64,000 nucleotides of DNA from an uncultured Verrucomicrobiae bacterium (GCA_963749035.1 CAVVKW010000004.1:594531-658530), one strand, 5' to 3'; positions 20,070-59,334 are shown, counted from the stretch's first letter. Program-made: numbers and translations. Notes: generated from the sequence alone by a model not told the origin.

Positions 20070-20381
20070 GAGCTATTGAAGTTGGGACCTGCCGGAATCG
20101 TGATCGAGATTTGGTAGAGCTCGCTCATCGTGTGCCACGAAAATCCACGAGCAATGGACGGTGATCATATGCGACGAACGGGCGCGAAAAGGTGGACTTC
20201 GTGGCACTCGATGAGCTTCTACGGCTATCAGTGGCGTGTTTGGCAGATTGATGTGGAGCCGAAGGCGCGGAGTAAATCTACCTCGACCGATCATATCATA
20301 TTCTCGAGGCGTAGATTCTCGATTCAACGCGACCCCACGATTCGTCGTGCACTGTGATAGGTCGCGGCCTGTATCTCTGTA
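20070..20381 (-). repeat. cassette family C, divergent copy C1
   Basis: Carries the same hairpin arms, GCTCATCGTGTGCCACGAA (20123-20141) and TTCGTGGCACTCGATGAGC (20198-20216), with two compensatory pair changes relative to C2-C5. A 106-codon frame is open here only. Confidence 0.6.
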
Positions 20382-20508
20382 GTCTAACGTCAAGCTCAGC
20401 CACCCTGAGCAGGTGACCGAGCCGCCAGTGGCAGATTCCTACAGGTTGCACGGCCGCTAACCCCAGCCAGCGAAGCGGCTAGGGGTTGGCTGCAGCGCCT
20501 TGTTCGGC
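20382..20508 (-). repeat. attC site 4
   Basis: Boxes gtctaac/gttcggc, 127 bp. Confidence 0.9.
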
Positions 20509-21534
20509 TCAGATCTCAACCTCAATGTATGTTCCAATGCCGGAATTTGCGATGGCTTCGTTGATCTCAGCAATTCGTTTTTGTATTCGTGGCCAGCTTG
20601 TAGAAAGAAGGACAACAATAGCAATCCGTCTTCTTTTGGCTCTTCGCTATTCCGAGTGGGTTTACAGAGTGGGCCTGAAAGCTGGGATTTGAAGGTCGAG
20701 TTGACTGGCTTTGAGGTAGGCCATGGTTTGGAAGTTGCGGAGGGATCGGTATCCGCGAGCCAATCGTTTGGCGAGTTGAAGTAACCCGTTGATGGCCTCG
20801 ATGGCGCCGTTGGTGACGCGGGTTTTGAGGAAGGCGACGATTCCCTTCCAGTGCCGCTGGATGGAGCAAGCCAGCTTGCGGAAGGGTTCGAGCCGACTGA
20901 GTTTGGCACTCTTGCACCACCATCGCAGGCTTTCTTCATCTTCTCCGGCGAGGATGTCCTGAAGGGTCTCGCGCAGACCCAACGCGCGACCGAGTTTGGG
21001 ATGGAGGCGGATCAGATTGCGGCGTTCGGCTTGCTGAGCTTCTGTTCGGCTCCATGAGTTGCCCCGCAAGGCCCAGAGTACTCCGCTCAGATCGGCTCCC
21101 TGCCGGGCGATCATCTTGCGCACCCGATCGCAAGCCTGCCCGGCCATCATCATGAGATGGAAGCGATCGAAGACAACCTCTGCCCACGGGAAGCTTTCCC
21201 TGGCCCCTTTCTGGTAAGCCTCGCTCATGTCCATACTGATGAGGCGGATCTGTTCGGGGCAGGCTTGGTGGGCGGGCAACTCTTTGGCGAAATCAGCCAA
21301 GGCTTGAGCGCTGCGACCTTCGACCATGAGCAAGAGTTGTGGGTGTCGGCGTCGATGATGTTGATCACGTAACGGTAACCCCGGCGTGAACTCGTCTCAT
21401 CAACGCAAATCCGCGTGACTTCCGACCAACTTTCCCGGGCATGAGCACTTTCCACGTAATGTTGGGCCACGCGCCAGAGTCGGGTATTGAGGTGGTGCTG
21501 AAAATGCGGACACGGGATAGACCAAGAAAAAGCC

Positions 21535-21885
21535 GTGAACGAAAAACCAAGAGAAACGAACAAGGGGCGACGATTTGACGAAGAGTTCAAACGAAGCGCC
21601 GTGGAAATGCTGGAAAGCGGAACGCGAAGCGCGACACAACTAGCGCTTGAGCTGGGGATCTCGACGTGGAGCCTGGGCAGGTGGAAGAAGCTTTACGGGA
21701 GAACCGCCGCCGGGACGGGTCCGGAGGGGGGAGGAGGACCCGTCCCGGCGGCGGGGCGGCCCCAGGACCTCGCCAGCGAGAACGCTCGCCTGAGAAGGGA
21801 ACTGGAGTTCACCACCCGCCAACGAGACATTTTAAAAAAAGCCTGCGCCATTTTGGGTCAGGAACCGTGGAACGCTTTGCGCTGA
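21535..21885 (+). CDS. IS3-family transposase OrfA
   Basis: RRFDEEFKRSAVEMLESG...ELGISTWSLGRWKK...LRRELEFTTRQRDILKKA. A6G slippery site at ~21835. Confidence 0.85.
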   Translation: MNEKPRETNKGRRFDEEFKRSAVEMLESGTRSATQLALELGISTWSLGRWKKLYGRTAAGTGPEGGGGPVPAAGRPQDLASENARLRRELEFTTRQRDILKKACAILGQEPWNALR

Positions 21886-22760
21886 TCGAGACGATGGAAA
21901 AGAACAGCTTTACCCTCAAGGAGCTTTGCCTGGCTCTGGAAGTCAGTCGCAGCGGCTACTACGCCCACGGGAAAAAGACCGAAGGTCTGCGCCAGCGCGA
22001 AGACGCCGATCTGAGTGATCGGATCGAAGCGGCTTTCCACGAGAACCGCCGAACCTACGGGACCCGTCGGCTGCGCGTCGTCCTTGATCGAGAAGGGCAA
22101 GTCTGCGGGCGACGACGTATCTCGCGCTTGATGTCCCAGAAAGGACTATGTGCCTTGCGCAAGGGTCGTTATCGGCCCCGCACGACCGACAGCTGCCACC
22201 CTCATCCCATCGCCCCGAATCGGCTCTTGTCCGATACGACCAACACGACCTCGTCTACCCCTGGGCAGACATGGGTGGCTGACATCACCTACCTACCCAC
22301 CGATGAAGGCTGGCATTATCTGGCTGCCGAAATGAACCTCGCTTCCCGTCGGATCGTTGGCTGGAAAACGGGATCAACCATGGAGAGCACCCTCGTCGAA
22401 AGTGCCTTCAGCCGCGCCGTCTTGCTCTCAGGAACTCGTCCACAACTCCACCATTCCGACCGCGGCAGCCAGTACGCCGCTGGGGCTTTCCGCTCCCTGC
22501 TCGACTCCCACGGCGTGACGCCGAGCATGAGCCGACGCGCCAACTGCTATGATAACGCCGCCATGGAGTCGTTCTGGTCCACTCTCAAAACCGAATGCTT
22601 CCACGCCGGCCCTCCGGCCACCCAAGCCCAAGCCGACGCGATGCTCTTCGACTACATCGAAACCTTCTACAATCCACGCCGACTCCATAGCTCCCTCGAC
22701 TACCAATCACCCCTCGAATACGAAAACTCACTCAATAACCTAACAACCAAAACAGACTAA
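21838..22760 (+). CDS. IS3-family transposase OrfB (DDE, via -1 frameshift)
   Basis: rve motifs WVADITYLPT, HHSDRGSQY, YDNAAMESFWSTLKTE. The start coordinate is approximate (frameshift product). Confidence 0.8.
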
Positions 22761-23172
22761 CTTCCCCTGTCCACTTTTTCGGCTCCACTTCATACTGGAA
22801 GAAATCCAGATGCCTCCACTCTTTGCTCACGCTGTCGTGGGTCCCACAACGCTGCCCACGCTGCGGACACGCAAACCGTTCTCCACGAGCAAAATCGAGT
22901 TCCAAGAGCAGCCGTTTGGGGTCACCCGCAAATTCGCATCGCTCCACTTTCCAGCCTTCATCCAACGCCAATGCCGCGGTAAACAGTGATTCGGGTGTCA
23001 TCCCTGGACTCTGATCCCCGACTATGGGCCGCTTCAAGTCGCTTCCGACCCCACCGCCCGATTCAACATCGCGCCGTTTGCTGCCTGCCTACCCACTCAT
23101 TTCAGCGAAGACCCATAAAGTAAAGAACCAGTATGCCTCTGAGAATGTCGATTGGGATGTTTTCATATTATA

Positions 23173-23298
23173 GCCGAACGTCAAGCTCAGCCACCTCGAA
23201 CAGATGGTCGAACTACTGATTGTGATCTGGAGAAGGTGACGCTTCCGAGCGTCTGAAAAGGAGAGCGGCTAGGGGTTGGCTGCAGCGCCTTGTTCGAC
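23173..23298 (-). repeat. attC site 5
   Basis: Boxes gccgaac/gttcgac, 126 bp. Confidence 0.9.
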
Positions 23299-24469: not shown

Positions 24470-24598
24470 GTCGAACGTCAAGCTCAGCCACCCCGAACAC
24501 GGGACCGAACTTGCATGGTGGACGTTGGATGGAATGGCGGAAGTCAGAACAACTGCGCCCTGTCGCGGCTAGGGGTTGGCTGCAGCGCCTTGTTCGGC
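24470..24598 (-). repeat. attC site 7
   Basis: Boxes gtcgaac/gttcggc, 129-bp subtype. Confidence 0.9.
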
Positions 24599-24883
24599 AT
24601 CATTTATATCATGCCAAATTTTGAATGCATTTGTGCGGCGCAGATATTCAGCGTGGCGATCAGCAGATTGTTCGCACGAGGATCGATTACTCGGGTAACG
24701 TATTTTGCGGCGAAAGCGATTCTGATGATGATGACCAAGTTCATGTAAAAACACCTCGGCAAACATGAAGAATGCGATGTCGATCCGCTGCTTCCAGTGA
24801 ACTTCTACAATGTCGGGTAGTCGAGTCGTCTCAGCTGAATGGCCGTAATACCAATCTTCGATGTGCGGAAGGAGCGTCTTATA
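24569..24883 (-). pseudogene. cassette ORF with HExxH motif, 5' end truncated by IS630
   Basis: The frame is open from the IS junction (KWYKTLLPHIEDWYYGH...FLHELGHHH...) to the tail AEQGAAANP. No start codon remains upstream. Confidence 0.55.
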
Positions 24884-26017
24884 CCATTTCTATCTAAGAA
24901 TAGGACGTAAAAGTTTGTAGGAACTGTTTGTTTGAGAGAGCAGCCAGCCTTGACCAATCAAGGTGTTTACATTGGCGGGAGATTCCCAAAATTGTTTCAG
25001 CAGGCGGACGATGGCGGCTTCGATGTCGTCCAGAGTATCAAACAAGGCGTTGCCGATCTCGTCTTTGAGCTGGTCGAAGAGCTTTTCAACGGGATTGAGT
25101 TCTGGGCCATAGGCCGGAAATTGGAGGACGTGGATGCGCTCGGGAAGCGGATGAGAGCCCGCCTTTTGATGGAAGCCGGCACCATCCCAAATGATGACGT
25201 GATGGGCGCTCTCGTCGCTCTCGGCCAATTGACGCAGGAAGAAGTCGCTGACTTCCAGACTGAGCGTTGGGCTGAAAAAGAACTCGCTGGCGTTGTCTCC
25301 GTCAATCTCAAGCGCCGCGTAGAGGTGGCCCCACTGATATTTAGTTTGGTAGGGCGCGGTGGGTTTGACACCCCGCAACGTCCAAACCTTGCGGATCTCG
25401 CTGATCAGCCCATAGCGATGCTCATCAACCATCCAAACACGAACCTTTGCCTCACTCGGCAAGTCGAGGGCTTGAAGACGCTGGGCCAGTTCTTCTTTGA
25501 ATGCCAAGGCCGCGACCTCGTCTTTGCGAGCGTGAGTCTTGCGCGGCACTTTCAAGACTCCGCCGACTTTTCCCAACCAGTAATAAACCCCTTTGAGGCT
25601 GAGTTGCACGCCGTGATCTTCGCTCAGCCATGCCCGAACCTCCTTGGCCCGCTTCCAGCGACCTTGGCGCAGACCTTCCTTAAAGACTTCAATAAGCTCT
25701 GGACTCAGCGACGGCTCGTTGCCGGGCGGCTTCTTGCGTTCCAGCAAACCAGCTATTCCAGCCTCTCGATACCAACTCGCCCAGCGACCGACCGCTGAAC
25801 GGGCTCGAACGACCGCTTCAGCGACCTCTTCCATCGTGTAGTTGCCACTCATTCCCATTCGAACCGCTTGTAGCTTCTCAATATCTCGACGTTCGGTTGC
25901 CGCCTTTTCCGCTGCCTTGACCTCAACGAGATCTCCATCAATTCGAAACTTTTTTCCCATCGCCTAAACTACCAGATTCTTGGAATCTTGAATAGTCCTC
26001 AAGTTACATAGAAATGG
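24884..26017 (-). mobile_element. IS630-family insertion sequence
   Basis: IRs CCATTTCTAT(C/G)TAA at both ends. TA dinucleotide on each flank (24882-83, 26018-19). Confidence 0.85.
24890..25960 (-). CDS. IS630-family transposase
   Basis: 356 aa. HTH N-terminus, then WMVDEHRYGL, IIWDGAGFH, PAYGPELNPVEKLF (DDE). Confidence 0.88.
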   Translation of the reverse strand: MGKKFRIDGDLVEVKAAEKAATERRDIEKLQAVRMGMSGNYTMEEVAEAVVRARSAVGRWASWYREAGIAGLLERKKPPGNEPSLSPELIEVFKEGLRQGRWKRAKEVRAWLSEDHGVQLSLKGVYYWLGKVGGVLKVPRKTHARKDEVAALAFKEELAQRLQALDLPSEAKVRVWMVDEHRYGLISEIRKVWTLRGVKPTAPYQTKYQWGHLYAALEIDGDNASEFFFSPTLSLEVSDFFLRQLAESDESAHHVIIWDGAGFHQKAGSHPLPERIHVLQFPAYGPELNPVEKLFDQLKDEIGNALFDTLDDIEAAIVRLLKQFWESPANVNTLIGQGWLLSQTNSSYKLLRPILR

Positions 26018-26019
26018 TA

Positions 26020-26265
26020 TGACACGACAACACACGCGAACGGATTGATGGTCTTTTGCAGGTTTGCCCGTGGCATACAGGTTGCCGTCGTGGCGGTCGA
26101 TGAGCTCTCCAGCAACGGAAGTGTGAATATCTCGGTGGAGGTGAAGGTGAAGGGACGCTGATCTAAAGGAGGTGAATATCAATATGACTGCTGAACGCCT
26201 TGCAGACGATTAGGCACCCATTTTGCTTTCTGGCGTTCGCATACGAAGACTCCGCATTTCATTCT
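26020..26265 (-). repeat. cassette family A, copy A1 (truncated by IS630)
   Basis: Begins mid-element at TGACACGACAACACACGCG, directly after the IS630 TA. Confidence 0.8.
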
Positions 26266-26391
26266 GTCCATCGTCAAGCTCTGCCACCCTGATCGGGCGT
26301 GCGAGCTACTGATTCTGATCTACTGGAAGAAGTGGTTCCGAGCTTCTGAGACGGAACGCGGCTAGGGGTTGGCTACAGCGTCTTGTTCGGC
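26266..26391 (-). repeat. attC site 8 (ATC-type box on family A side)
   Basis: Boxes gtccatc/gttcggc, 126 bp. Confidence 0.85.
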
Positions 26392-29852: not shown

Positions 29853-30242
29853 TTATTCTTTTCCGTAGAATTCGGAGATCTCTATTTGATTGAGCGACCT
29901 GATGAAGAACCAATCTCGCAGAAACGCATAAAGCAATATGAGCGCAGTCCCTCCGATGGCCGTGTAAGAGAATCGATTCTGCCAGAGCAAAGACAAAAAT
30001 TCGTAAGCTCCATTGTCAAAACTCCAAGTTAGGAGAAGATAAAGTCCTAGGAATTGGATGGACCACATTGGGGTTTGAGCTACTTGAGGTTTTTGGCGAT
30101 GAGGGGCCATCATCCTGACGAACGCGGCCCCGACGAAAAACACTACAGCAATCCAAAGGTTGAGAATAAATGCAATGGCTGTGCCGATGAACAGCAGGAA
30201 ATGCGATGAGAGAACTAATTGTTTCACGCTGATGTAGACCAT
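29853..30242 (-). CDS. cassette ORF, 129-aa integral membrane protein (copy 1 of 2)
   Basis: 4 TM segments with its own TAA stop. Near-identical copy at 36437..36826. Confidence 0.7.
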   Translation of the reverse strand: MVYISVKQLVLSSHFLLFIGTAIAFILNLWIAVVFFVGAAFVRMMAPHRQKPQVAQTPMWSIQFLGLYLLLTWSFDNGAYEFLSLLWQNRFSYTAIGGTALILLYAFLRDWFFIRSLNQIEISEFYGKE

Positions 30243-30287
30243 GAGTGAGATTTTTGGCTAGTTAGGGTTTCGCTAAAGTATTTCTGG

Positions 30288-30413
30288 ACCGAACGTCAAG
30301 CTCAGCCACCCCGAACGAGCTTCCGAGGTATGGATTGATGTTTGTTGGAGGAAGAGCTTTCGAACGTCGGAAACGGAGGGCGGCTAGGGGTTGGCTGCAG
30401 CGCCTTGTTAGAC
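30288..30413 (-). repeat. attC site 16
   Basis: Boxes accgaac/gttagac, 126 bp. Confidence 0.9.
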
Positions 30414-30731
30414 TGGTCAGGATAAAATAGTGAGCTGCGGAGAAGATAATCGAAAACTGCGGACTAGCTCATCGTGTGCCACAACAATGTACGCAGTCGA
30501 GAAACTGATCTCTTTCAGGATCTCATGGTCGTATACAAGTGACAGTTGTGGCACTCGATGAGCCTCCCACAGCAGGGGGAACGTTGAATGCGTGATAGGC
30601 TCCCGTGCCGAAGGATTTCACGGATGCTACGATCTGGACAACTATTCTTTATGCTCGTTCTTTAATCGCCCGATTAATTGTTCGCAATCGAATGCCTGTT
30701 GGAAACGGAAGTCGCAATGCAGTATCAGGAA
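30414..30731 (-). repeat. cassette family C, copy C2
   Basis: Hairpin arms at 30467-30485 and 30545-30563. No frame is conserved with C3-C5. Confidence 0.8.
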
Positions 30732-30857
30732 GTCGAACGTCAAGCTCAGCCACCCCGTACGGGCGTTCGAGCTACGGGTTGTGAACTGCTGGAAGAATCG
30801 CTTTCGAGCATCTGAGACGGAACGCGGCTAGGGGTTGGCTGCAGCGTCTTAATGGAC
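30732..30857 (-). repeat. attC site 17
   Basis: Boxes gtcgaac/aatggac, 126 bp. Confidence 0.85.
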
Positions 30858-31228
30858 AGAATTTCATCGAGTCGCCGCCTGGCAATCGAGCTATCAAACC
30901 TTCGAATGATGCGCTTATCGAGTGACACGACAACAAACGCAAACGGATTGATGGTCTTTCGGAGGTTTGCCCGTGGCATACAGGTTGCCGTCGTGGCGGT
31001 CGATGAGCTCTCCAGCAACGGAAGTGTGAATGTCTCGGTGGAGGTGAATGTGAAGGTGAAGGTGAAGGTGAAGGTGAAGGTGAAGGTGAAGGTGAAGGTG
31101 AAGGTGAAGGTGAAGAAACGCTGATCCAAAGGAAGTGAATATCAATATGACTGCTGAACGCCTTGCAGACGGTTACGCACCCATTTTCCTTTCTGGCGTT
31201 CGCATACGAAGAATCCGCATTTCATTCT
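30858..31228 (-). repeat. cassette family A, copy A4 (expanded hexamer tract)
   Basis: Same unit as A2, with 12 GGTGAA-type units. Confidence 0.85.
31043..31114. repeat. (GGTGAA)n microsatellite, 12 units (10 perfect)
   Basis: Counted directly: perfect units from 31055 to 31114. Confidence 0.95.
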
Positions 31229-31354
31229 GTCCATCGTCAAGCTCAGCCACCCCGATCGGGTGTGCGAGCTACTGTTTGTGATCTACTGAAAGAATCGCTT
31301 TCGAGCATCTGAGACGGAACGCGGCTAGGGGTTGGCTGCAGCGCCTTGTTCGAC
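31229..31354 (-). repeat. attC site 18
   Basis: Boxes gtccatc/gttcgac, 126 bp. Confidence 0.85.
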
Positions 31355-31721
31355 TGGATTGGGTTGTCGTCCGGGAAAGTCATCGAGCTACTGGGGGCGT
31401 CGTATACTTTAGTTCAAATCGCGAAGCCACTTCAATGAATGGACGAATCCGGAGAGAAGGGTTCGACTCGGAAGGCATATATTTCACGAGCGTGGAACGG
31501 ATGAGGGCTGGATGTGACCGGAACGAGTAGGGATCAAGCTACAAATCTTTTTTTCATCCGCCGGAGGCTGCTCACGGACATCGGTCGAAATCCGGTAGAG
31601 CCGACCTTGCCTCCGGCGTGGCCTCTCAAGTCGTCGCAGTCTGAACCAATGGTAGTTTGCCGGGTTTGCCGTCAGCTACAGAAGCCCGGATTTAATCATT
31701 CGCCGGAGGCTGCATCATGAA
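31355..31721 (-). repeat. cassette family B, copy B2
   Basis: Family B unit. Confidence 0.8.
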
Positions 31722-31847
31722 GTCGAACATCAAGCTCAGCCACCCCGAACGGGCGTGCGAGCTACGGGTTGTGATCTACTGGAGGAAAACTGAGGAAGAA
31801 AGCTGATAGTGGAGCGGCTAGGGGTTGGCTGCAGTGCCTTGTTAGCT
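31722..31847 (-). repeat. attC site 19
   Basis: Boxes gtcgaac/gttagct, 126 bp. Confidence 0.9.
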
Positions 31848-32235
31848 GCCTTCGTGGTGCGATCGTCATCCATGTTGGGTTGGGATGTCGCCTGAGCTGC
31901 TTTTTATTGGATTGATTCTGTGCTAGCGAGTGAGACTCGAACGTAAATATCAGCTATTACAATTTACTTCCTTTGCACGACTGCAATGATGAAGTTCGAA
32001 TCTGAAGATGGGTTCTATACCGAAGTCACAATATCATTATGAAAGCGCAATTCATTCGAAGGAGGTGAGAATAAAGAAGAGGACCTTCGTGTGAATCATA
32101 TATGTATTCAATTTGTGTCAATTGTTTTATAGAATAGTGAAGATCAAACTATGATATGGATTGGGACTCAGATGCACATCAACGATCTACAGAACGACGT
32201 CGCATTGCGGGTTGTTGCATGAATATTGTATAAGC

Positions 32236-32361
32236 AGCTAACGTCAAGCTCAGCCACCCCGAACGGGCGTTCGAGCTACGGGTTGTGATCTACTGGAGGA
32301 AAACGGTGGAAGAAGCTCGGCAGGTGAGCGGCTAGGGGTTGGCTGCAGCGCCTTGTTCGGC
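32236..32361 (-). repeat. attC site 20
   Basis: Boxes agctaac/gttcggc, 126 bp. Confidence 0.9.
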
Positions 32362-32366
32362 TGTAT

Positions 32367-32894
32367 TCACTGTGCAAACGATCGGATTCTTTCCTCGAGT
32401 CCGATTGCAACCGTCATCCTAGATTCGATCTCAAGCTCGTCGGGATAAAATTGGCGACCGCCGTCTGAAACTAGGAACCTTAAAAAGTGCAGCACAGCGT
32501 TGTTCGCTCGAACGATCATGTCGTATAGCAACCAGCTTTTTGGAAAGTGTTCCGCTCGTTCAAGCGTCAGATGTGAAAAATGCTTATTGATGTCGGATCT
32601 TTCAGAGTCAGTCAGAAACGGACCGGGGGAAGTGAACTCCGGATACATGTCAGCGCACAAATCCGTGGGAAACTTTGGTGCGCAAAAGAAAGAGTTAATT
32701 AGGCGCATGCTGGAAAGTGAAGTCTCAATCGTCCCATTTTCGAGGGCATCGATCGCAGCTGAGGGAATGTTGGTCTCTCTGATGGCTCTTCCAAAGTGGG
32801 TCTGCCAGTAGAACGGTAGAGAAATCATATCTGCTGAAAGGCAGAACTCTCGAGCACCGCCCTTTAGTTGGGATAGTGTAGGGTCTGATTTCAT
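32367..32894 (-). CDS. cassette ORF, 175-aa hypothetical protein
   Basis: ATG start and own TGA stop, immediately 5' of the conserved ATACAG+R box. A CATCCGCCGGAGGCTG motif lies upstream (32927-32942). Confidence 0.7.
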   Translation of the reverse strand: MKSDPTLSQLKGGAREFCLSADMISLPFYWQTHFGRAIRETNIPSAAIDALENGTIETSLSSMRLINSFFCAPKFPTDLCADMYPEFTSPGPFLTDSERSDINKHFSHLTLERAEHFPKSWLLYDMIVRANNAVLHFLRFLVSDGGRQFYPDELEIESRMTVAIGLEERIRSFAQ

Positions 32895-32943
32895 TATGAG
32901 CTGGGAAAGGTGTGCGTCATTTATATCATCCGCCGGAGGCTGA

Positions 32944-33069
32944 GCCGAACGTCAAGCTCAGCCACCCCGAACGGGCTTGCGAGCTACTGGTTGTAATCTG
33001 CTGAAAGAATCGCTTTCGAGCATCTGAGACGGAATGCGGCTAGGGGTTGGCTGCAGCGCCTTGTTCGAC
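32944..33069 (-). repeat. attC site 21
   Basis: Boxes gccgaac/gttcgac, 126 bp. Confidence 0.9.
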
Positions 33070-33435
33070 TGTATCGGCTGGTGGTCCGGGAAAGTCATCG
33101 ATCTACTGGGAGCGTCGTATACTTTGGTTCAAATCGCGAAGCCACTTCATTGTTTCGAGGAATCCAAAGAGAAGTGCTTGACTCGGAAGGCATATATTTC
33201 ACGAACGCGGAAGGGATGAGGGCTGGATGTGGCTGGAATGAACAGGGACCAAGCTACGAATTTTTTTTCATCCGCCGGAGGCTGCTCACGGACGTCGGTC
33301 GAAATCCGGTGGAGCCGATCTTGTCTTCGGGGTGGCCTCTCAAGTCGTCGCAGTCTGAACCAATGGTAGTTTGCCGGGTTTGCCGTCAGCTAGAGAACAC
33401 CGAATTTACTCATCCGCCGGAGGCTGCATCATGAA
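33070..33435 (-). repeat. cassette family B, copy B3
   Basis: Family B unit. Confidence 0.8.
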
Positions 33436-33564
33436 GTCGAACGTCAAGCTCAGTCACCCCGAACACGGGACCGAACTTGCATGGTGGACGTTGGATGGAA
33501 TGGCGGAAGTCAGAACAACTGCGCCGTGTCGCGGCTAGGGGTTGGCTGCAGCGCCTTGTTCGGT
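33436..33564 (-). repeat. attC site 22
   Basis: Boxes gtcgaac/gttcggt, 129-bp subtype. Confidence 0.9.
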
Positions 33565-33948: not shown

Positions 33949-33962
33949 GGCGAAGTTTTTGG

Positions 33963-34088
33963 ACCGAACGTCAAGCTCAGCCACCCCGAACAGATGGTCG
34001 AAATACTGATTGTGTTCTGATGAAGGTGACGCTTCCGAGCGTCTGAAAAGGAGAGCGGCTAGGGGTTGGCTGCAGCGCCTTGTTGGGC
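33963..34088 (-). repeat. attC site 23
   Basis: Boxes accgaac/gttgggc, 126 bp. Confidence 0.9.
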
Positions 34089-34514: not shown

Positions 34515-34517
34515 ATA

Positions 34518-41511: not shown

Positions 41512-41637
41512 ACCGAACGTCAAGCTCAGCCACCCCGAACAGGCATGCGAGTTATGGGCTGTGATCTACTGTAGGGAAATCGTGGATGAAAGTTGGTAGT
41601 GTCGCGGCTAGGGGTTGGCTGCAGCGCCTTGTTAGAC
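41512..41637 (-). repeat. attC site 36
   Basis: Boxes accgaac/gttagac, 126 bp. Confidence 0.9.
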
Positions 41638-41957
41638 TGGTCAGGATAAAATGGTGAGCTGCGGAGAAGATGATCGAATAACTGCGGACTAGCTCATCGT
41701 GTGCCACAACAATGTACGCAGTCAAGAAACTGATCTCTTTCAGGATAACCCGGTCGTATACAAGTGACAGTTGTGGCACTCGATGAGCCTCCTATAGCAG
41801 GCGGAACGTTGAATGCGTGATAGGCTCCCGTGCCGAAGGCTTCCACGGGTGCTACATGATGGAAAGTTATTCTCTTATGCTCGTTCTTTGATCGCCCGAT
41901 CAATTCTTCGCAATCGAATGTCTGTTGGAAACGGAAGTTGCAACGCAGTATCAGGAA
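41638..41957 (-). repeat. cassette family C, copy C3
   Basis: Family C unit. Confidence 0.8.
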
Positions 41958-45059: not shown

Positions 45060-45068
45060 AATGGAATA

Positions 45069-45782: not shown

Positions 45783-45791
45783 TGTATAAAG

Positions 45792-45917
45792 ACCGAACGT
45801 CAAGCTCAGCCACCCCGAACGGGCTTCCGAGCTACGGGTTGTGATCTACTGGAAGAAGTGCTTCCGAGCATCTGAGACGGAACGCGGCTAGGGGTTGGCT
45901 GCAGCGTCTTGATGGAC
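45792..45917 (-). repeat. attC site 43
   Basis: Boxes accgaac/gatggac, 126 bp. Confidence 0.85.
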
Positions 45918-46234
45918 AGAATTTGATTGAACCGCCGCCTGGCAATCGAGCTATCAAACCTTCGAACGATGCGCTCATCGAGTGACACGACAACACACGC
46001 GAACGGATTGATGGTCTTTTGCAGGTTTGCCCGTGGCATACAGGTTGCCGTCGTGGCGGTCGATGAGCTCTCCAACAACGGAAGTGTGAATGTCTCGGTG
46101 GAGGTAAAGATGAAAATGAAGGTAAGCTGATCCAAAAGAGGTAAATATCAATATGACTGCTGAACGCTTTGCAGACGATTACGCACCCATTTTGCTTTCT
46201 GGCGTTTGCATACGAAGACTCCGCACTTCCTTCT
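45918..46234 (-). repeat. cassette family A, copy A6
   Basis: Duplicate of A3. Confidence 0.85.
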
Positions 46235-46360
46235 GTCCATCGTCAAGCTCAGCCACCCCGAACGGGCGTGCGAGCTATGGATTGTGATCTGATGAAGGTG
46301 ACGCTTCCGGACGTCTGAGACGGAGCGCGGCTAGGGGTTGGCTGCAGCGCCTTGTTCGAC
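46235..46360 (-). repeat. attC site 44
   Basis: Boxes gtccatc/gttcgac, 126 bp. Confidence 0.85.
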
Positions 46361-46724
46361 TGTATGGGATGGTCGCCCGGGAAAGTCATCGAGCTATTGG
46401 GGGCGTCGTATACCTTGGTTCTAATCGCGAAGGCACTTTAATGATTGGACGAATTCAAAGAGAAGGGTTCGACTTGGCAGGCATATATTTACGACCGCGG
46501 AAGTGATGAAGGCTGCATGTGGCCGGAACGAGCGGGGATCAAGCTACGAATTTTTTTCATCCGCCGGAGGCTGCTGACGGACATCGGTCGAAATCCGGTG
46601 GAGCCGATCTTGTCTTCGGCGCGGCCTCTCAAGTCGTCGCAGTCTGAACCAATGGTGGTTTGCCGGGTTTGCCGTCACCTACAGGAGCCCGGATTTAATC
46701 ATCCGCCGGAGGCTGCATCATGAA
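46361..46724 (-). repeat. cassette family B, copy B6
   Basis: Family B unit, close to B8. Confidence 0.8.
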
Positions 46725-46849
46725 GTCGAACGTCAAGCTCAGCCACCCTGCACGGGCGACCGAGAATCTGGAAAAGGTGAACTGCCGGAAAGAGTCACCT
46801 CAACCCGGGCGCGAAGCGGCTAAGGGTTGGCTGCAGCGCCTTGTTCGGC
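46725..46849 (-). repeat. attC site 45
   Basis: Boxes gtcgaac/gttcggc, 125 bp. Confidence 0.9.
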
Positions 46850-47134
46850 TGCATTCTTAGTATTTTTCAAGGTCCGTTCAATCCGTGGATTGATTACAAA
46901 TCCCCAATAAAGAAATACTGACATAATTATTAACGGAAGCTCCAAAAGCCAAAAATAGTTCAAAGACAGCAGATCAAGAATCGATGGTATTCCAAATGCA
47001 AAGATTAAAAGTGGCAATCGAAGCCACATAATGAATGGCTCTCTTATCTCAAGATTTCTCATAATGGAGCGGATCTCTGACGGCGATTTGTCAGATAATT
47101 CTTTTATCTGGCTATGACGCAAAATGAATTTCAT
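46820..47134 (-). CDS. cassette ORF, 104-aa membrane protein (copy 3 of 3)
   Basis: Protein identical to the 28281..28595 copy. Confidence 0.7.
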   Translation of the reverse strand: MKFILRHSQIKELSDKSPSEIRSIMRNLEIREPFIMWLRLPLLIFAFGIPSILDLLSLNYFWLLELPLIIMSVFLYWGFVINPRIERTLKNTKNAAEQGAAANP

Positions 47135-47141
47135 TGTAATA

Positions 47142-47267
47142 GCCGAACGTCAAGCTCAGCCACCCTGAACGGGCGTGCGAAATGCGGAACGCAGTTCCGC
47201 CAGGTAGCGGCTACGAGTTGGGTGTGTCAGCACGCGGCTAAGGGTTGGCTGCAGCGCCTTGTTCGGT
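47142..47267 (-). repeat. attC site 46
   Basis: Boxes gccgaac/gttcggt, 126 bp. Confidence 0.9.
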
Positions 47268-47273
47268 GGTATT

Positions 47274-47654
47274 TTATCTGCACATCCAAATACGGTCTAT
47301 TTTCCATGCATTCTTGTCCCGAATGAAATCAATATGAATGTGCCCAAGTTCCTGTCCATGTCCGCCAAGTTTGAATTGGCTCTTCTCTATAGGGAAATCA
47401 CGATTCGCATACCGCTCGGCAAGTCTGATTGCTCCATGAGAAGTATCGAGTGCCTCAATGTAGTTGATACGAATTGTCGTTGCATCAAGTGGTGAAGCAA
47501 AAGAGTCGGCGATTGCTGTGAAATCTTTCAATTCAAGTTTCTGGTCAAGCCAACGAAGCGCTTCTGGTAGAGATGTGAACTCAGGAGTATCTTGTGCGCT
47601 CGCGGAACAAGAGACGTGGATAGCGCAGAGAATAGTGAAGAGAAGAGATCTCAT
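47274..47654 (-). CDS. cassette ORF, secreted protein
   Basis: ATG at 47654 gives MRSLLFTILCAIHVSCSASAQD (signal peptide). Own stop. Confidence 0.68.
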   Translation of the reverse strand: MRSLLFTILCAIHVSCSASAQDTPEFTSLPEALRWLDQKLELKDFTAIADSFASPLDATTIRINYIEALDTSHGAIRLAERYANRDFPIEKSQFKLGGHGQELGHIHIDFIRDKNAWKIDRIWMCR

Positions 47655-47664
47655 AAATTTATTC

Positions 47665-47790
47665 ACCGAACGTCAAGCTCAGCCACCCCGATCGGGCGTT
47701 CGAGCTACGGGTTGTGAACTGCTGAAAGAATCGCTTTCGAGCATCTGAGACGGAACGCGGCTAGGGGTTGGCTGCAGCGTCTTGATGGAC
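47665..47790 (-). repeat. attC site 47
   Basis: Boxes accgaac/gatggac, 126 bp. Confidence 0.85.
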
Positions 47791-48101
47791 AGAATTTCAT
47801 CGAGTCGCCGCCTGGCAATCGAGGTATCAAACCTTCGAACGATGCGCTCATCGAGTGACACGACAACACACGCGAACGGATTGATGGTCTTTTGCAGGGT
47901 TGCCCGTGGCATACAGGTTGCCGTCGTGGCGGTCGATGAGCTCTCCAGCAACGGAAGTGTGAATATCTCGGTGTAGGTAAACGTGAAGGGAAGCTGATCC
48001 AAAGGAGGTGAATATCAATATGACTGCTGAACGCCTTGCAGACGATTACGCACCCATTTTGCTTTCTGGCGTTCGCATACGAAGACTCCGCATTTCATTC
48101 T
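47791..48101 (-). repeat. cassette family A, copy A7
   Basis: Family A unit. Confidence 0.85.
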
Positions 48102-48226
48102 GTCCATCGTCAAGCTCAGTCACCCCGATCAGGTGCAGAGGAAAGTGGAGTGATCAACCGCAATCTGGTCGTCCGCCAACCCCGAGAGCGAAGCGGCTAG
48201 GGGTTGACTGCAGCGCCTTGTTCGAC
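48102..48226 (-). repeat. attC site 48
   Basis: Boxes gtccatc/gttcgac, 125 bp. Confidence 0.85.
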
Positions 48227-48928
48227 TGTATTTGTATGTCCTAAGAAATGAGTGTCGAGAGGACACTCGACAACAGAATCTCCTTCAGTGCTGATGTAAA
48301 AGGCCTGCGCAGTGGGACGTGAACTCACCACATAGGCAAGGGCATCATCGATAAAATGAAGAGCGACGCCGTCATCAATAGCATAACCGGGAGATAGCCT
48401 ATGCTGTTGGATCAAAGTGTGAAATGAAAGGCGGCGTTCAGGCTCTCCATCGTAATGAGGTGTGCAACTGCCGGAAAGGAAACCGAGGCAATCCATCACA
48501 GATAAATCACCGTCTGAATCTGTGTGTCCCTGATCAAACCAACAAATGGCGCCGGCACTTAAGCCGCACAGAACAACGCCGTTCTTCCAAGCTTCGTGAA
48601 GCATGGAATCTAGGTTGAAAGAGCGCCAAGTGGTAAGCATGTTTCGTGTATTCCCTCCACCGACGTAAATCACGTCGCACTCTTTCACAAATTCCGTCAA
48701 GTCCGGGGGACTATCGGAGAGCGAAAGATGGCATGGCCGGCAAGGCAATGTTGAAAATGCGGTGTAAAAGCGATCAATGTATCCTTCAGAATCTCCGCTG
48801 GCTGTCGGTAGAAAACAAACTTTCGGCTCAGGCTTACCGGTGGAATCTAAGGCGTAGCGATCGAGAAGGAGATTTGCGGGTTCCATCGAAAACCCGCCAC
48901 CGCCCATCGCTATAATGTGCCTTTTCAT
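48197..48928 (-). CDS. peptidase S51 (dipeptidase E-like) family protein
   Basis: IIAMGGGGF...VCFLPTASGDS...IYVGGGNTRNML...LCGLSAGAICWF. Tail VEQGAAVNP. Confidence 0.78.
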   Translation of the reverse strand: MKRHIIAMGGGGFSMEPANLLLDRYALDSTGKPEPKVCFLPTASGDSEGYIDRFYTAFSTLPCRPCHLSLSDSPPDLTEFVKECDVIYVGGGNTRNMLTTWRSFNLDSMLHEAWKNGVVLCGLSAGAICWFDQGHTDSDGDLSVMDCLGFLSGSCTPHYDGEPERRLSFHTLIQQHRLSPGYAIDDGVALHFIDDALAYVVSSRPTAQAFYISTEGDSVVECPLDTHFLGHTNTVEQGAAVNP

Positions 48929-48936
48929 GATTTATA

Positions 48937-49062
48937 GTCGAACGTCAAGCTCAGCCACCCCGAACGAGAGTTCAAACGACTGACTGTGATCTGCTGAAGG
49001 TGACGCTTTCGAACGTCTGAAACGGAACGCGGCTAGGGGTTGGCTGCAGCGTCTTGATGGAC
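48937..49062 (-). repeat. attC site 49
   Basis: Boxes gtcgaac/gatggac, 126 bp. Confidence 0.85.
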
Positions 49063-49378
49063 AGAATTTGATTGAACCGCCGCCTGGCAATTGAGCTATC
49101 AGACCTTCGAACGATGCGCTCATCGAGTGACACGACAACACACGCGAACGGATTGATGGTCTTTTGCAGGTTTGCCCATGGCATACAGGTTGCCGTCGTG
49201 GCGGTCGATGAGTTCTCCAGCAACGGAAGTGTGAATATCTCGGTGTAGGTAAAGGTGAAGGTGAAGGGACGCTGATCTAAAGGAAGGGAATATCAATATG
49301 ACTGCTGAACGCCTTGCAGACGATTGGGCACCCATTTTGCTTTCTGCGTTCGCATACGAAGAATCCGCATTTCATTCT
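49063..49378 (-). repeat. cassette family A, copy A8
   Basis: Family A unit, with a 1-nt deletion in the 3' part relative to the other copies. Confidence 0.85.
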
Positions 49379-49504
49379 GTCCATCGTCAAGCTCAGCCAC
49401 CCCGAACGGGCGTGCGAGCTATGGATTGTGATCTACTGGAGGTGGTGCTTTCGAACATCTGAAACAGAAAGCGGCTAGGGGTTGGCTGCAGCGCCTTGTT
49501 CGAC
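49379..49504 (-). repeat. attC site 50
   Basis: Boxes gtccatc/gttcgac, 126 bp. Confidence 0.85.
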
Positions 49505-49868
49505 TGTATGGGATGGTCGCCCGTGAAAGTCATCGAGCTACTGGGGGCGTCGTATACTTTGGTTCAAATTGCGAAGCCACTTCAATGATTGGACGAATCC
49601 AGAGAGAAGGGTTCGACTCGGAAGGCATATATTTCACGAGCGTGGAAGGGATGAGGGCTGGATGTGGCCGGAACGAGTAGGGATCAAGTTACGAATTTTT
49701 TCATCCGCCGGAGGCTGCTCACGGACATCGGTCGAAATCCGGCGGAGCCGATCTTGTCTTCGGCGCGGCCTCTCAAGTCGTCGCAGTCTGAACCAATGGT
49801 AGTTTGCCGGGTTTGCCGTCAGCTACAGAATACAGAATTTACTCATCCGCCGGAGGCTGCATCATGAA
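49505..49868 (-). repeat. cassette family B, copy B7
   Basis: Family B unit. Confidence 0.8.
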
Positions 49869-49994
49869 GTCGAACGTCAAGCTCAGCCACCCCGAACGGG
49901 CTTCCGAGCTATGGATTGATGTTTGCTGGAGGAACAGCTTTCGAACGTCGAAAACGGAACGCGGCTAGGGGTTGGCTGCAGCACCTTGTTAGAC
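49869..49994 (-). repeat. attC site 51
   Basis: Boxes gtcgaac/gttagac, 126 bp. Confidence 0.9.
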
Positions 49995-50314
49995 TGGTCA
50001 GGATAAAATGGTGAGCTGCGGAGAAGATGATCGAAAAACTGCGGAGTAGCTCATCGTGTGCCACAACAATGTACGCAGTCGAGAAACTGATCTCTTTCAG
50101 GATATCCCGGTCGTATACAATTGACAGTTGTGGCACTCGATGAGCCTCCCATAGCAGACGGAACGTTGATTGCGTGATAGGCACCCGCGCCGAAGGCTTC
50201 TACGGGTGCTACATTATGGAAAGTTATTCTCTTATGCTCGTTCTTTGATCGCCTGATTAATTCTTCGCAATCGAATGCCTGTTGGAAACGGAAGTTGCAA
50301 CGCTGCATCATGAA
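49995..50314 (-). repeat. cassette family C, copy C4
   Basis: Family C unit. Confidence 0.8.
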
Positions 50315-50443
50315 GTCGAACGTCAAGCTCAGCCACCCCGAACATGGGACCGAACTTGCATGGTGGACGTTGAATGGAATGGCGGAAGTCAGAACAACTG
50401 CGCCGTGCGGCGGCTAGGGGTTGGCTGCAGCGCCTTGTTCGAC
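50315..50443 (-). repeat. attC site 52
   Basis: Boxes gtcgaac/gttcgac, 129-bp subtype. Confidence 0.9.
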
Positions 50444-53125: not shown

Positions 53126-54048
53126 TTAGTCTGTTTTGGTTGTTAGGTTATTGAGTGAGTTTTCGTATTCGAGGGGTGATTGGTAGTCGAGGGAGCTATG
53201 GAGTCGGCGTGGATTGTAGAAGGTTTCGATGTAGTCGAAGAGCATCGCGTCGGCTTGGGCTCGGGTGGCCGGAGGGCCAGCGTGGAAGCATTCGGTTTTG
53301 AGAGTGGACCAGAACGACTCCATGGCGGCGTTATCATAGCAGTTGGCGCGTCGGCTCATGCTCGGCGTCACGCCGTGGGAGTTGAGCAGGGAGCGGAAAG
53401 CCCCAGCAGCATACTGGCTGCCGCGGTCGGAATGGTGGAGTTGTGGACGAGTTCCTGAGAGCAAGACGGCGCGGCTGAAGGCGCTTTCGACGAGGGTGCT
53501 CTCCATGGTTGATCCCGTTTTCCAGCCAACGATCCGACGGGAAGCGAGGTTCATTTCGGCAGCCAGATAATGCCAGCCTTCATCGGTGGGTAGGTAGGTG
53601 ATGTCAGCCACCCATGTCTGCCCAGGGGTAGACGAGGTCGTGTTGGTCGTATCGGACAAGAGCCGATTCGGGGCGATGGGATGAGGGTGGCAGCTGTCGG
53701 TCGTGCGGGGCCGATAACGACCCTTGCGCAAGGCACATAGTCCTTTCTGGGACATCAAGCGCGAGATACGTCGTCGCCCGCAGACTTGCCCTTCTCGATC
53801 AAGGACGACGCGCAGCCGACGGGTCCCGTAGGTTCGGCGGTTCTCGTGGAAAGCCGCTTCGATCCGATCACTCAGATCGGCGTCTTCGCGCTGGCGCAGA
53901 CCTTCGGTCTTTTTCCCGTGGGCGTAGTAGCCGCTGCGACTGACTTCCAGAGCCAGGCAAAGCTCCTTGAGGGTAAAGCTGTTCTTTTCCATCGTCTCGA
54001 TCAGCGCAAAGCGTTCCACGGTTCCTGACCCAAAATGGCGCAGGCTTT
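53126..54048 (-). CDS. IS3-family transposase OrfB
   Basis: Same protein as copy 1 with 2 substitutions in the track ORFs (D/N, Q/R). The 5' coordinate is approximate (frameshift product). Confidence 0.8.
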
Positions 54049-54351
54049 TTTTAAAATGTCTCGTTGGCGGGTGGTGAACTCCAGTTCCCTTCTCAGGCGA
54101 GCGTTCTCGCTGGCGAGGTCCTGGGGCCGCCCCGCCGCCGGGACGGGTCCTCCTCCCCCCTCCGGACCCGTCCCGGCGGCGGTTCTCCCGTAAAGCTTCT
54201 TCCACCTGCCCAGGCTCCACGTCGAGATCCCCAGCTCAAGCGCTAGTTGTGTCGCGCTTCGCGTTCCGCTTTCCAGCATTTCCACGGCGCTTCGTTTGAA
54301 CTCTTCGTCAAATCGTCGCCCCTTGTTCGTTTCTCTTGGTTTTTCGTTCAC
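54001..54351 (-). CDS. IS3-family transposase OrfA
   Basis: Identical to the protein encoded at 21535..21885. Confidence 0.85.
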   Translation of the reverse strand: MNEKPRETNKGRRFDEEFKRSAVEMLESGTRSATQLALELGISTWSLGRWKKLYGRTAAGTGPEGGGGPVPAAGRPQDLASENARLRRELEFTTRQRDILKKACAILGQEPWNALR

Positions 54352-57808: not shown

Positions 57809-57937
57809 AGTTGTAAGGTTTAGTTAGTCGTATGTGGTGTGAATTCTCTAACTGAGGTATCCTAGCGACAAAGTTAATCTACTGTGGTTGGTATGCACGT
57901 CTTTTATTATCAAATTCCGCCGGAGGATGCTTATTGA

Positions 57938-58063
57938 GCCGAACGTCAAGCTCAGCCACTCCGAACGGGTGATCGAGCTATAGGTCGTGATCTACTGGAG
58001 GAAGATCGTGGATGAACGCTGGCAGCAGCGCGGCTAGGGGTTGGCTGCAGCGCCTTGTTCGCT
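57938..58063 (-). repeat. attC site 64
   Basis: Boxes gccgaac/gttcgct, 126 bp. Confidence 0.9.
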
Positions 58064-58867
58064 CCGACGGCGCACAAACGTCCACAGCATCCAGACGACA
58101 AGGACGGACGCGAGAAAACTGAAAGCGGTAGGCTCGGCAATAGTTTGCATCACCGCGGATGAGTCGAGTGCCTCGTTATAGATCCTCAGATCATCAAGAG
58201 TTCCTGCGAAAAATTCAAATGCACCAGCAGTTGAGCCTAAGGTAGATGCCGAGCTGTCTGTTGTTGAGGTCGTTGTCTGGGGGAACGAGATCGATCCGGG
58301 AAGTAGAAGCTGAAGTTCTCCATTGAAGTAAATATCAATCCTATCGTTCGCATAATCGATGACGCCAGCGATATGAATCCACTCGTCCAGTGCTACCTGG
58401 CTGCTCGTCACCCTGGACTGGAAAGATGATGAATCTGATGCACGCCCGGCGACCTCGACGAAGCCATCTCCGGAGATGAACATGCCTCCGCGACTCTCGA
58501 ATGAATTGTTTGTGGTGCTTATAAATGCAAGGGATCCAATGTCAGATGGATATGCATCGATCTTGATCCATGTAGTAAATGACGCGCCCGAGGCGTTGTT
58601 CAAGAGGTCGTTATTCTGCCCGTTTGGTTCTAGCGAAACATATGAGCTGCTGCCAGATAGACGTAACGCGAAAGAACCCACTTTCCCGGGGACATATTGG
58701 GCATTGATGATAGTTCCGTCGTCGACCGGTGACGATGTTCCGTCAGCTACTGCGGAATCAAAGGCAATGGATCCAGATCCCTCCTCAAATCCATATTGGG
58801 CGACGAGACCGGCATATCCAGACGATGTGAATAGAACGAACAGCAAAAAGGGTAGTTGAGATTTCAT
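58034..58867 (-). CDS. LamG/concanavalin-like domain protein with PEP-CTERM-like anchor
   Basis: Signal peptide. AQYGFEEGSG...GKVGSFALRLSGSSSYVSL (LamG-type). C-terminal AEP + TM + RRR, then the attC tail SEQGAAANP. Confidence 0.72.
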   Translation of the reverse strand: MKSQLPFLLFVLFTSSGYAGLVAQYGFEEGSGSIAFDSAVADGTSSPVDDGTIINAQYVPGKVGSFALRLSGSSSYVSLEPNGQNNDLLNNASGASFTTWIKIDAYPSDIGSLAFISTTNNSFESRGGMFISGDGFVEVAGRASDSSSFQSRVTSSQVALDEWIHIAGVIDYANDRIDIYFNGELQLLLPGSISFPQTTTSTTDSSASTLGSTAGAFEFFAGTLDDLRIYNEALDSSAVMQTIAEPTAFSFLASVLVVWMLWTFVRRRSEQGAAANP

Positions 58868-58889
58868 GGGTTCAGAATTGTATTATATG

Positions 58890-59015
58890 AGCGAACGTCA
58901 AGCTCAGCCAACCCGAACGGGCTTCCGAGGTATGGATTGATGTTTGTTGGAGGAAGAGCTTTTGAATGTCGAAAACGGAGTGCGGCTAGGGGTTGGCTGC
59001 AGCGCCTTGTTAGAC
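58890..59015 (-). repeat. attC site 65
   Basis: Boxes agcgaac/gttagac, 126 bp. Confidence 0.9.
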
Positions 59016-59334
59016 TGGTCAGGATAAAATGGTGAGCTGCGGAGAAGATGATCGAATAACTGCGGACTAGCTCATCGTGTGCCACAACAATGTACGCAGT
59101 CGAGAAACTGATCTCTTTCAGGATCTCCCGGTCGTATACAAGTGACAGTTGTGGCACTCGATGAGCCTCCCACAGCAGGGGGAACGTTGAATGCATGATA
59201 GGCTCCCGTGCCGAAGGCTTCCACGGGTGCTACGATCTGGACAACTATTCTTTATGCTCGTTCTTTAATCGCCCGATCAATTCTTCGCAATCGAATGCCT
59301 GTTGGAAACGGAAGTTGCAATGCAGTATCAGGAA
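59016..59334 (-). repeat. cassette family C, copy C5
   Basis: Family C unit. Confidence 0.8.

Follow-up and report, generated by a model that had tools for sequence, protein, structure and literature searches.

Repeated cassettes without genes are known from the large integrons of Vibrio, where, according to Boucher 2006 (PMC1382264), non-coding cassettes represent 6–49 % of the arrays and are highly paralogous, with 45 copies of a single family. Their conservation was read there as the result of selection or of gene conversion, and they were proposed to be selfish elements or regulators of the integron; neither 'secondary structure' nor 'small RNA' occurs as a term in that article. Additionally, promoter activity has been reported for most of 29 gene-less Vibrio cassettes, with no open reading frame (ORF) of more than 70 aa (Blanco 2024, PMC11014356). 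Here we analyse family C, a group of short repeated cassettes from a stretch of 64,000 nt (hereafter, the window; GCA_963749035.1 CAVVKW010000004.1:594531-658530) of an uncultured Verrucomicrobiae bacterium. Family C is a further case of the paralogous non-coding cassettes already known, in another phylum. Its members contain, close to their attC site, a hairpin that is common to otherwise unrelated cassette families; such a shared module, with compensatory changes in its stem and situated at a fixed distance from attC, appears to be new.

Family C resembles the Vibrio non-coding cassettes, as these are described by Boucher 2006, in that the copies are bounded by attC sites, lack a conserved ORF and are numerous within one array, with 78 of the 191 cassettes falling here into three families, and in that close homologs occur only in related species. 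The phylum of the host differs, the Vibrio set being known to us from the description in that paper. In a comparison made through the paper only, what stands on the side of family C is that several families otherwise impossible to align with one another share a 19-bp compensated inverted repeat at a fixed distance from attC. No described hairpin in non-coding cassettes was found in a literature search by title and abstract.

The hairpin module of family C

In the window, family C comprises four near-repeats of ~327 nt, C2 to C5, which are 91–96 % identical in pairwise comparisons, and one distant member, C1. An earlier note on this DNA had placed these five copies correctly, although the family is larger than the note had supposed, with 16 close and two C1-kind copies in the genome. 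C1 and C3 are not linked by BLAST; the covariance model R1 scores the C1 module with 120 bits. The copies and their parts, in coordinates of the window, are as follows.

19948..20385, minus strand: C1 (type C1, distant member), with its own attC at 19948–20065 and content at 20066–20385
20123..20216, no strand assigned: hairpin of C1, with arms GCTCATCGAGTGCCACGAA / TTCGTGGCACACGATGAGC; fold as single-stranded DNA (ssDNA), z −5.19
30292..30735, minus strand: C2 (unit U016), with its own attC at 30292–30409 and content at 30410–30735
30467..30563, no strand assigned: long hairpin of C2, with 19-nt arms and a 59-nt loop
41516..41961, minus strand: C3 (unit U036), with its own attC at 41516–41633 and content at 41634–41961
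41634..41691, minus strand: tail of C3, from the hairpin to attC, containing TTCGATCA and GCAGCTCACC; its length is constant across types
41692..41788, no strand assigned: long hairpin of C3; ssDNA fold, z −5.89 for the minus strand and −4.52 for the plus strand
41827..41849, no strand assigned: small helix of C3, CCCGTG-N11-CACGGG, whose loop on the minus strand is GAAGCCTTCGG
49873..50318, minus strand: C4 (unit U051), with its own attC at 49873–49990 and content at 49991–50318
50049..50145, no strand assigned: long hairpin of C4
58894..59338, minus strand: C5 (unit U065), with its own attC at 58894–59011 and content at 59012–59338
59070..59166, no strand assigned: long hairpin of C5; ssDNA fold, z −5.23
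60756..60925, minus strand: the 170-nt module in a family-A cassette, as an example (there are 10 full family-A copies in the window)

The sequencing runs listed for the stretch were four, all of DNA and from one study, with none of RNA. Their contigs, which are not assignable to single family C copies, cover 30/30 bins of the region 30200–50190 with three indel differences, none of them inside the content of C2, C3 or C4. The 1-nt indels between copies that had been quoted in the note are present in the sequence.

Clustering of the 191 cassettes of the array resulted in three large families, with 33, 29 and 16 members, and 76 singletons; the 29-member family is designated A and the 33-member one B. 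The hairpin arms are found at the same place in 47 of the 191 cassettes (29 of family A, 16 of family C and the two of type C1), besides one remnant. The resulting superfamily, of non-coding cassettes of ~325 nt, contains types C, C1, A, D, E, F and G, plus a decayed A′, with D and E, and then F, G and A′, coming from relatives in other genomes, and A′ also from the second integron of the own genome. The 5′ halves of the cassettes cannot be aligned between types, whereas the 3′ module, of 166–172 nt, is alignable in all 64 distinct sequences. The relationship with family A that the note had perceived is supported, because one 170-nt 3′ module, identically placed, is common to both families.

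From 5′ to 3′, the module starts with a purine-rich, GGAGAA-like run followed by arm 1 (GCTCATC-GAGYG-CCACRAC), a loop of ~59 nt and arm 2 (GTYGTGK-CACWC-GATGAGC), both arms being of 19 nt and built as 7+5+7. After them comes a tail of ~61 nt, constant in length, formed by a spacer of 14–15 nt, TYGATCA, 8 nt, GCAGCTCAYC (a motif absent in type A) and 15–16 nt up to attC; the sequences of the spacers differ between types. The long ATC/GAT hairpin is real, as proposed, its 19-nt arm appearing eight times in the window versus zero expected, and it is kept in every type. Folded as ssDNA, the 97-nt element reached z values of −4.5 to −5.9, and 0/200 shuffled sequences folded as well.

Base pairing in the arms was examined with a model-fitted alignment (A4) of 73 distinct sequences, containing 23 stem pairs, and with 500 shuffles. 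Seven of the 23 pairs were changed on both sides, a figure reached by 3/500 shuffles, and 85.8 % of the cells were paired. The covariation score, a check that had been named in the note, was 0.101, with the shuffles at 0.061 and slid partners no higher than 0.058. Compensated pairs correspond to arm positions 9, 11, 15, 17 and 19 and to two pairs just inside the arms, and the mismatches cluster at arm positions 9–11 and 13, within the central 5 nt of the arm and at the base that follows. In the hairpin of C1, for instance, pairs 29–95 and 31–93 have changed on both sides relative to type C. An earlier MAFFT alignment without the divergent types contained 4/23 compensated pairs. Distinct compensated variants coexist in one genome, which argues for base pairing rather than for two copies of the double-stranded binding site of a single protein. 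The pairing of the arms is upheld by these compensatory changes to a degree that is fair and not overwhelming, because they amount to few between-type events and the alignment was fitted to the structure.

When the 16 paralogous copies from the own genome were compared, singleton mutations numbered 2/38 sites in the arms, with 49/152 in the 5′ region, 21/59 in the loop and 9/53 in the tail (arms versus 5′ region, Fisher p = 0.0004). On the terminal branches of the tree of paralogs, protection extends to the stems and not to the loop, which is as variable as the 5′ region.

The small CCCGTG-N11-CACGGG helix, which had been considered conserved, is perfect in only two of the four window copies and its pattern is not above chance, since allowing two mismatches there were four matches versus 2.8 expected and 28/100 shuffles reached four; in a 22-copy alignment, its pairs are kept mostly by G-U on the minus strand. 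Nor are the hairpins nested, the small helix lying 39 nt outside the long one. As to the direct repeats described in the note, TCCGCAG appears twice in each copy, whereas ATTGCGA is duplicated only in some copies, C2 being the one in the window, and C3, C4 and C5 read ATTGCAA and ATTGCGA in its place. A pseudoknot between the GATC of the loop and that of the tail was discarded, the two being better described as a direct repeat with no consistent pairing. Neither hammerhead-like motifs nor rolling-circle nick motifs fitted in an informal comparison.

Two cassettes deserve mention for the loss or interruption of their hairpin. A type-E cassette from genome G003 (L080:447-528) lacks the whole structure, with 88 model positions reduced to 3 nt and intact flanks, a loss of the kind expected from slippage across an inverted repeat. 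A type-A cassette of the window (24595–26269) is cut within arm 2 by an IS630-like insertion sequence (IS), with a transposase gene at 24890–25960 on the minus strand (Pfam DDE_3). The sequence past this element belongs to a different cassette and, therefore, a deletion accompanied the insertion. With a TA-type end and an adjacent deletion, this IS offers no evidence for the hairpin as an insertion target.

Coding potential of the cassettes

We conclude that family C encodes no conserved protein, because no frame is open throughout, there is no codon-like pattern and the search in Pfam was empty. In agreement with the note, each of the six frames of the two strands is interrupted in at least one copy, and a conserved frame in a wider set of homologs, which the note had held would speak against its reading, was looked for across types and not found. 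The 91-codon frame (41694–41969, minus strand) is, as it had been reported, open in C3 and C4 and interrupted by a TAG in C2 and C5. Among the 16 own copies, this frame, of 88–91 codons, is open in four and has stops in 12, as well as in the copies shown from genomes G001 and G004; in C3 it starts with TTG, and its 91 aa matched no Pfam family. The other long frame had also been described correctly, with an early shift in C2 and running into an attC in C3 to C5. The frame that extends from the hairpin to attC is open for at least 79 codons in 14/16 own copies, as it is in those shown from G001 and G004; it has neither an ATG nor a stop of its own, ending at varying points within attC, and the residues encoded by the loop are wholly different in types C and C1.

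Variable sites were distributed as 37/45/35 by codon position over the content, that is, with no overall three-base periodicity. Periodicity in one sub-segment gave p = 0.007 after exclusion of the divergent copy, as one of twelve tests, and the corresponding frame contains stops in the own copies U016, U099 and U107 (in the alignment) and also in those of G001, G004 and U149. In types A and D there is a frame spanning the hairpin, with 8/7/10 differences over the codon positions, the other two frames being alike, and with 4 synonymous versus 14 non-synonymous codon changes. Among the coding frames that were tried and discarded are the six frames, an ATG in arm 2, an ATC after GGAGAA, a GTG in arm 1 and TGA read-through, none of which led to a product conserved between types.

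Under the length rules for gene-less cassettes alone, which Boucher 2006 sets at an ORF <150 bp and Blanco 2024 at ≤70 aa, some copies would be classed as coding, with stop-free frames of 88–115 codons in single copies. To confirm a cassette as non-coding, Boucher 2006 looked for a frame conserved among homologs and for a pattern of synonymous sites, and family C has neither. These results support the reading of family C, put forward in the note, as structured, non-coding cassettes related to family A.

The integron array and the distribution of the hairpin

The right 45 kb of the window belong to a very large chromosomal integron. Searching by motif identified 72 attC sites in the window, each of 116–121 nt and all in a single orientation, and 191 in the genome, every one on one strand of contig C4 (not to be confused with copy C4) between 613,303 and 733,406, over 120 kb. 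The integron integrase (TIGR02249, 428.5 bits) is encoded outside the window, at C4:734,992–735,921 on the plus strand, and intI is situated ~1.6 kb from the last attC, at the right end of the array and beyond that of the window. Because intI sits to the right of the array, the cassettes are sense on the minus strand of the window and the own attC of each copy is the left one, for instance that at 41516–41633 for C3; strand and boundaries are the reverse of those first read.

Four other findings support this assignment. The cassette proximal to the integrase contains a minus-strand ORF running to its end within attC (…EQGAAVNP*), 20/25 of the ORFs of at least 150 aa in the window's array are on the minus strand, and so are the three ORFs of cassettes that matched Pfam (Peptidase_S51, DUF5677 and Laminin_G_3). 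In the plus-strand view of the family C copies, the left attC tracks the family and the right one varies freely. Their R boxes, GTCTAAC / GTTAGAC, agree with the RYYYAAC ... GTTRRRY of integron cassettes, and each copy lies between attC sites, one of them at its 3′ end, in an array beside an integrase. No arm-like motifs were found near attI.

The GC skew of contig C4 is positive up to ~790 kb and negative past that point. Its sign over the array places the plus strand, and therefore the attC bottom strands, on what appears to be the template of the lagging strand, judging by GC skew in a contig from a metagenome-assembled genome (MAG). According to Loot 2017 (PMC5371416), excision is higher with the attC bottom strand on the lagging-strand template, shorter ones among test cassettes flanked by Vibrio cholerae repeats (VCR) are excised at higher rates, and arrays in this orientation hold at most 22 cassettes, the array described here having 191. 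The cassettes of families A and C rank with the shortest ones in the array.

All 47 matches to the hairpin pattern in the own genome were inside the main array, with none outside, and model R1 added a single copy, located in a second integron as part of its first cassette. Counts obtained with R1 refer to the 150 first-look candidates scored per genome and are lower bounds. Within this scope, the model matched four of the five other genomes of the genus, full matches numbering at least 15 in one, at least 29 in another, and 5 and 1 in the remaining two, and no match was found among the 150 candidates in the fifth, which is 98 % complete, or in any of 11 genomes from the three other genera of the family. 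BLAST searches with C3 led to matches in 5/61 genomes, including the own one and all from one genus, and in 0/55 from other genera; in a scan of one genome per species, two records with Verrucomicrobiae MAG titles contained exact matches. Two pattern scans of a metagenome collection yielded no true matches, the two loci from the relaxed scan being an unrelated long palindrome and a coding stretch. All members of the superfamily that were found come from integron arrays of one Verrucomicrobiae genus.

Family C has multiplied; its copies are scattered, with unrelated neighbours, and different types have expanded in different species. Subfamily C-alpha includes 15 copies, found only in the own genome, with a star-like tree and pairwise identities of 89.5–97.9 %. 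C-beta has a single own copy, 93 % identical to a copy from G001 and 86–88 % to those from G004. This copy (U149, C4:706950-707278) matches the G001 locus, L020, at 93 % versus 80–83 % for its 15 paralogs, a pattern produced either by two old subfamilies that persist or by the passage of a cassette between species. The copies are paralogous within the array and have close homologs only in relatives. Like miniature inverted-repeat transposable elements (MITEs) and repetitive extragenic palindromic (REP) sequences, the module is a short non-coding element present in many copies; its inverted repeats are conserved and its bursts are species-specific. Unlike them, it is not dispersed over the genome, all copies being in integron cassettes; it occupies a fixed place in the cassette and moves, if at all, with a cassette bounded by attC.

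The two larger families have peculiarities of their own. In the core boxes of family A, ATC/GAT replaces AAC/GTT, with R″ being GTCCATC in 28 of the 191 cassettes (plus one GTCCATT) and R′ being GATGGAC in 30; copies with ATC/GAT cores (e.g. 60641–61077) are nonetheless scattered through the array. A CACCTT hexamer repeat varies among the family A paralogs from none to about ten units (e.g. U017, ~30854–31232). Family B (33 copies with ~373 nt of content, e.g. 35935–36308) contains two copies of AGCCTCCGGCGGATGA, each followed by a stop within a few codons; in related genomes, cassettes that bear an ORF have this leader ahead of their ATG as well.

Regarding other features of the array, its left end in the window (18773) adjoins an IS3-type element (17503–18700), and two IS3-family transposase genes of equal length and domain make-up are found inside it, at 21666–22760 (plus strand) and 53126–54220 (minus strand); these opposed genes are a possible substrate for the inversion of ~30 kb of cassettes. 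The open frame bearing the main integrase (C4:734239-735921) has 561 codons, ~250 of them N-terminal and beyond the integrase model. The integrase of the second integron (346 bits; C4:1271062-1272600, locus L081) belongs to a decayed integron whose first cassette is a decayed type A′ with the hairpin module, and there is a third intI-like gene at C4:1204215-1205195.

Possible roles of the hairpin

The cassettes with the hairpin seem to be kept and multiplied for their nucleic-acid structure and not for a protein, and it is likely that they contain a non-coding structure of some kind acting in cis. The hairpin is similar to attC in being an imperfect palindrome that folds from a single strand, with 7-nt outer boxes, a mismatched middle of 5 nt, 7-nt inner boxes and a variable loop, and its 97 nt are within the range of lengths of attC sites. 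Its outer box, GCTCATC / GATGAGC, coincides at 6/7 positions with RYYYAAC / GTTRRRY, the deviant middle base being that of the core swap of family A. We lean, tentatively, to a role at the DNA level that is linked to recombination, because the spacing to attC is kept while the spacer sequences change; because the arms have an attC-like 7+5+7 layout, with R-box-like outer 7 bp and mid-segment mismatches; because redundant paralogs conserve cis signals with species-specific bursts, as self-spreading elements do; and because the orientation of the array and the short cassettes match the excision results of Loot 2017. Our best overall explanation, which we favour without considering it probable, is that these are gene-less cassettes with an attC-like accessory structure on ssDNA. 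The hairpin would act in cis as a folded single strand beside attC, promoting the excision and re-insertion of short, empty cassettes and leading to a selfish-like multiplication, and the placement of the attC bottom strands on the lagging-strand template would favour excision of short cassettes. A more precise mechanism, by which the hairpin would fold in the lagging-strand template and recruit the integrase or draw the flanking attC sites together, raising excision and re-insertion, is in our opinion unlikely as it stands.

Diverse observations weigh against this accessory, attC-like role. The likeness to R boxes was spotted after several other motifs had been tried, and for this reason its weight is limited. 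No crossover joints at the hairpin, with attC joined to ATGAGC or arm 2 joined to a cassette start, were present in the own array or in any of the fetched loci. Additionally, attC sites use bulged (extrahelical) bases, of which the folded attC sites of this array show two; the hairpin does not have them, since one of the 73 distinct sequences, of type A′, contains a 1-nt insertion in arm 2 and the rest only mismatches, and the middle segment of type C is paired except for one A-A. The inner boxes are also different from those of the attC sites of the array, and the hairpin is situated inside the cassettes, instead of bounding them. Family B has reached 33 copies without this hairpin. To the few between-type events and the structure-fitted alignment already mentioned must be added that covariation within type C alone is almost nil (term −1.47; 3/72 pairs), and that the scarcity of singletons in the arms has only p = 0.049 once U149, the divergent copy, is excluded. 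The folding strand is ambiguous as well: over the 23 pairs, 85.8 % are paired in the sense strand versus 83.4 % in the antisense, and the order flips in the 19-bp arms, with 88.3 % versus 92.3 %.

A role at the transcript level is a close second and nearly as likely as the DNA-level one, although it is itself possible rather than probable. The module could be part of a small RNA borne by the cassette or be a cis element of the array transcript, with a stem for processing, stabilisation or protein binding, and the cassettes would be kept as regulators of the array or of the cell. The stem pairs covary, as expected from an RNA, and G-U pairs on the sense strand largely maintain the inner stem extension (pairs 32–35) and the small 5′ helix. 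Roles at the RNA level have been proposed for paralogous non-coding cassettes (Boucher 2006, PMC1382264), and sRNA-Xcc1 of Xanthomonas, a cassette-borne small RNA, is a non-protein product of an integron cassette, which for family C is a candidate; unlike family C, the cassette of sRNA-Xcc1 carries symE, oriented against Pc (PMC12444791, PMC8876359). However, a free RNA needs neither an outer stem of invariant sequence nor a fixed distance to attC, it is the antisense strand that pairs better within the arms, and the fold of the whole cassette is unremarkable (z −1.2 sense, −2.3 antisense). Rfam, which presumably includes the sRNA-Xcc1 family, produced no matches in the whole window or, when E values up to 10 were allowed, for C3 plus flanking sequence, and nothing in the window matched sRNA-Xcc1 by sequence or in Rfam. 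Likewise, a scan found no promoter-like or terminator-like sites inside the content of C3 or C5. Promoter function, with the conserved 3′ part driving the next cassette or antisense transcription, could be proposed by analogy with the gene-less cassettes of Vibrio (Blanco 2024, PMC11014356) and Treponema (Tansirichaiya 2019, PMC6557892), which are also short and located in large arrays and have a proposed role in the expression of their neighbours; in the available texts no shared hairpin is described for them. A 120-kb array needs internal promoters, and those of gene-less cassettes are, according to a heading in Blanco 2024, not identifiable in silico. We regard this possibility as quite unlikely, because compensatory changes between the arms are not expected from it and the consensus scan detected no sigma-70-like site inside the content of C3 and C5, a difference from the promoter cassettes, as is the presence of longer, non-conserved frames in some copies. 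The arms of C and C1 (TGGCAC-N5-GAGC) have the GG-N10-GC spacing of sigma-54 promoters and the genome contains rpoN, but the −12 part (GAGC) lacks the usual TT, types A, D, E and G carry GT for GG on the sense arm, and there are only two full sigma-54 consensus sites in the whole genome.

The two remaining explanations match the pattern of conservation poorly. Absence of any present function would imply a decayed coding cassette, or fused cassettes with a dead inner attC that changed AAC to ATC and lost its bulges, copied passively by unequal crossing-over between near-identical attC sites. The frames broken by 1-nt indels and stops and the attC-like layout without crossovers agree with this; the attC sites share long identical ends, which favours slippage, and integrase-free loss of short cassettes has been observed (Loot 2017, PMC5371416). 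It is nevertheless improbable, given that the arms are near-invariant across at least seven types with an unalignable remainder and are poor in private mutations among paralogs, the loop not being so, that double changes restore pairing and that no translated frame is alike between types. Least credible of all, to the point that we would hardly expect it, is a small protein or peptide, translated from the GTG of arm 1, which in types C and C1 follows a GGGAGG by 8 nt, or from the 88–91-codon frame open in C3 and C4. The GTG frame is open for at least 79 codons in the copies indicated above, but its start codon is missing in types A, D and E, the residues encoded in the loops of C and C1 are unrelated, it has no stop of its own, with varying ends in attC, and its variable sites (9/10/8 and 2/6/4 by position) show no codon periodicity; the 88–91-codon frame is, as described, stopped in 12/16 own copies and in those shown from G001 and G004, and without any Pfam family.

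Whether repeated non-coding cassettes are selfish or regulatory has been a long-standing puzzle since their description in Vibrio. This genus gives a testable handle on it, with one short, compensated hairpin at a fixed distance from attC in at least seven cassette families. Very large integron arrays of such a make-up exist outside the Proteobacteria, and this one is seemingly in the replication orientation that earlier work tied to small, unstable arrays. If the hairpin indeed folded in the lagging-strand template and recruited the integrase or drew the flanking attC sites together, the cassettes of types A, C, C1, D, E, F and G would be parasites of the integron, empty cassettes reduced to cis signals and comparable to MITEs, and this would explain the large share of non-coding repeats in the array of 191 cassettes.

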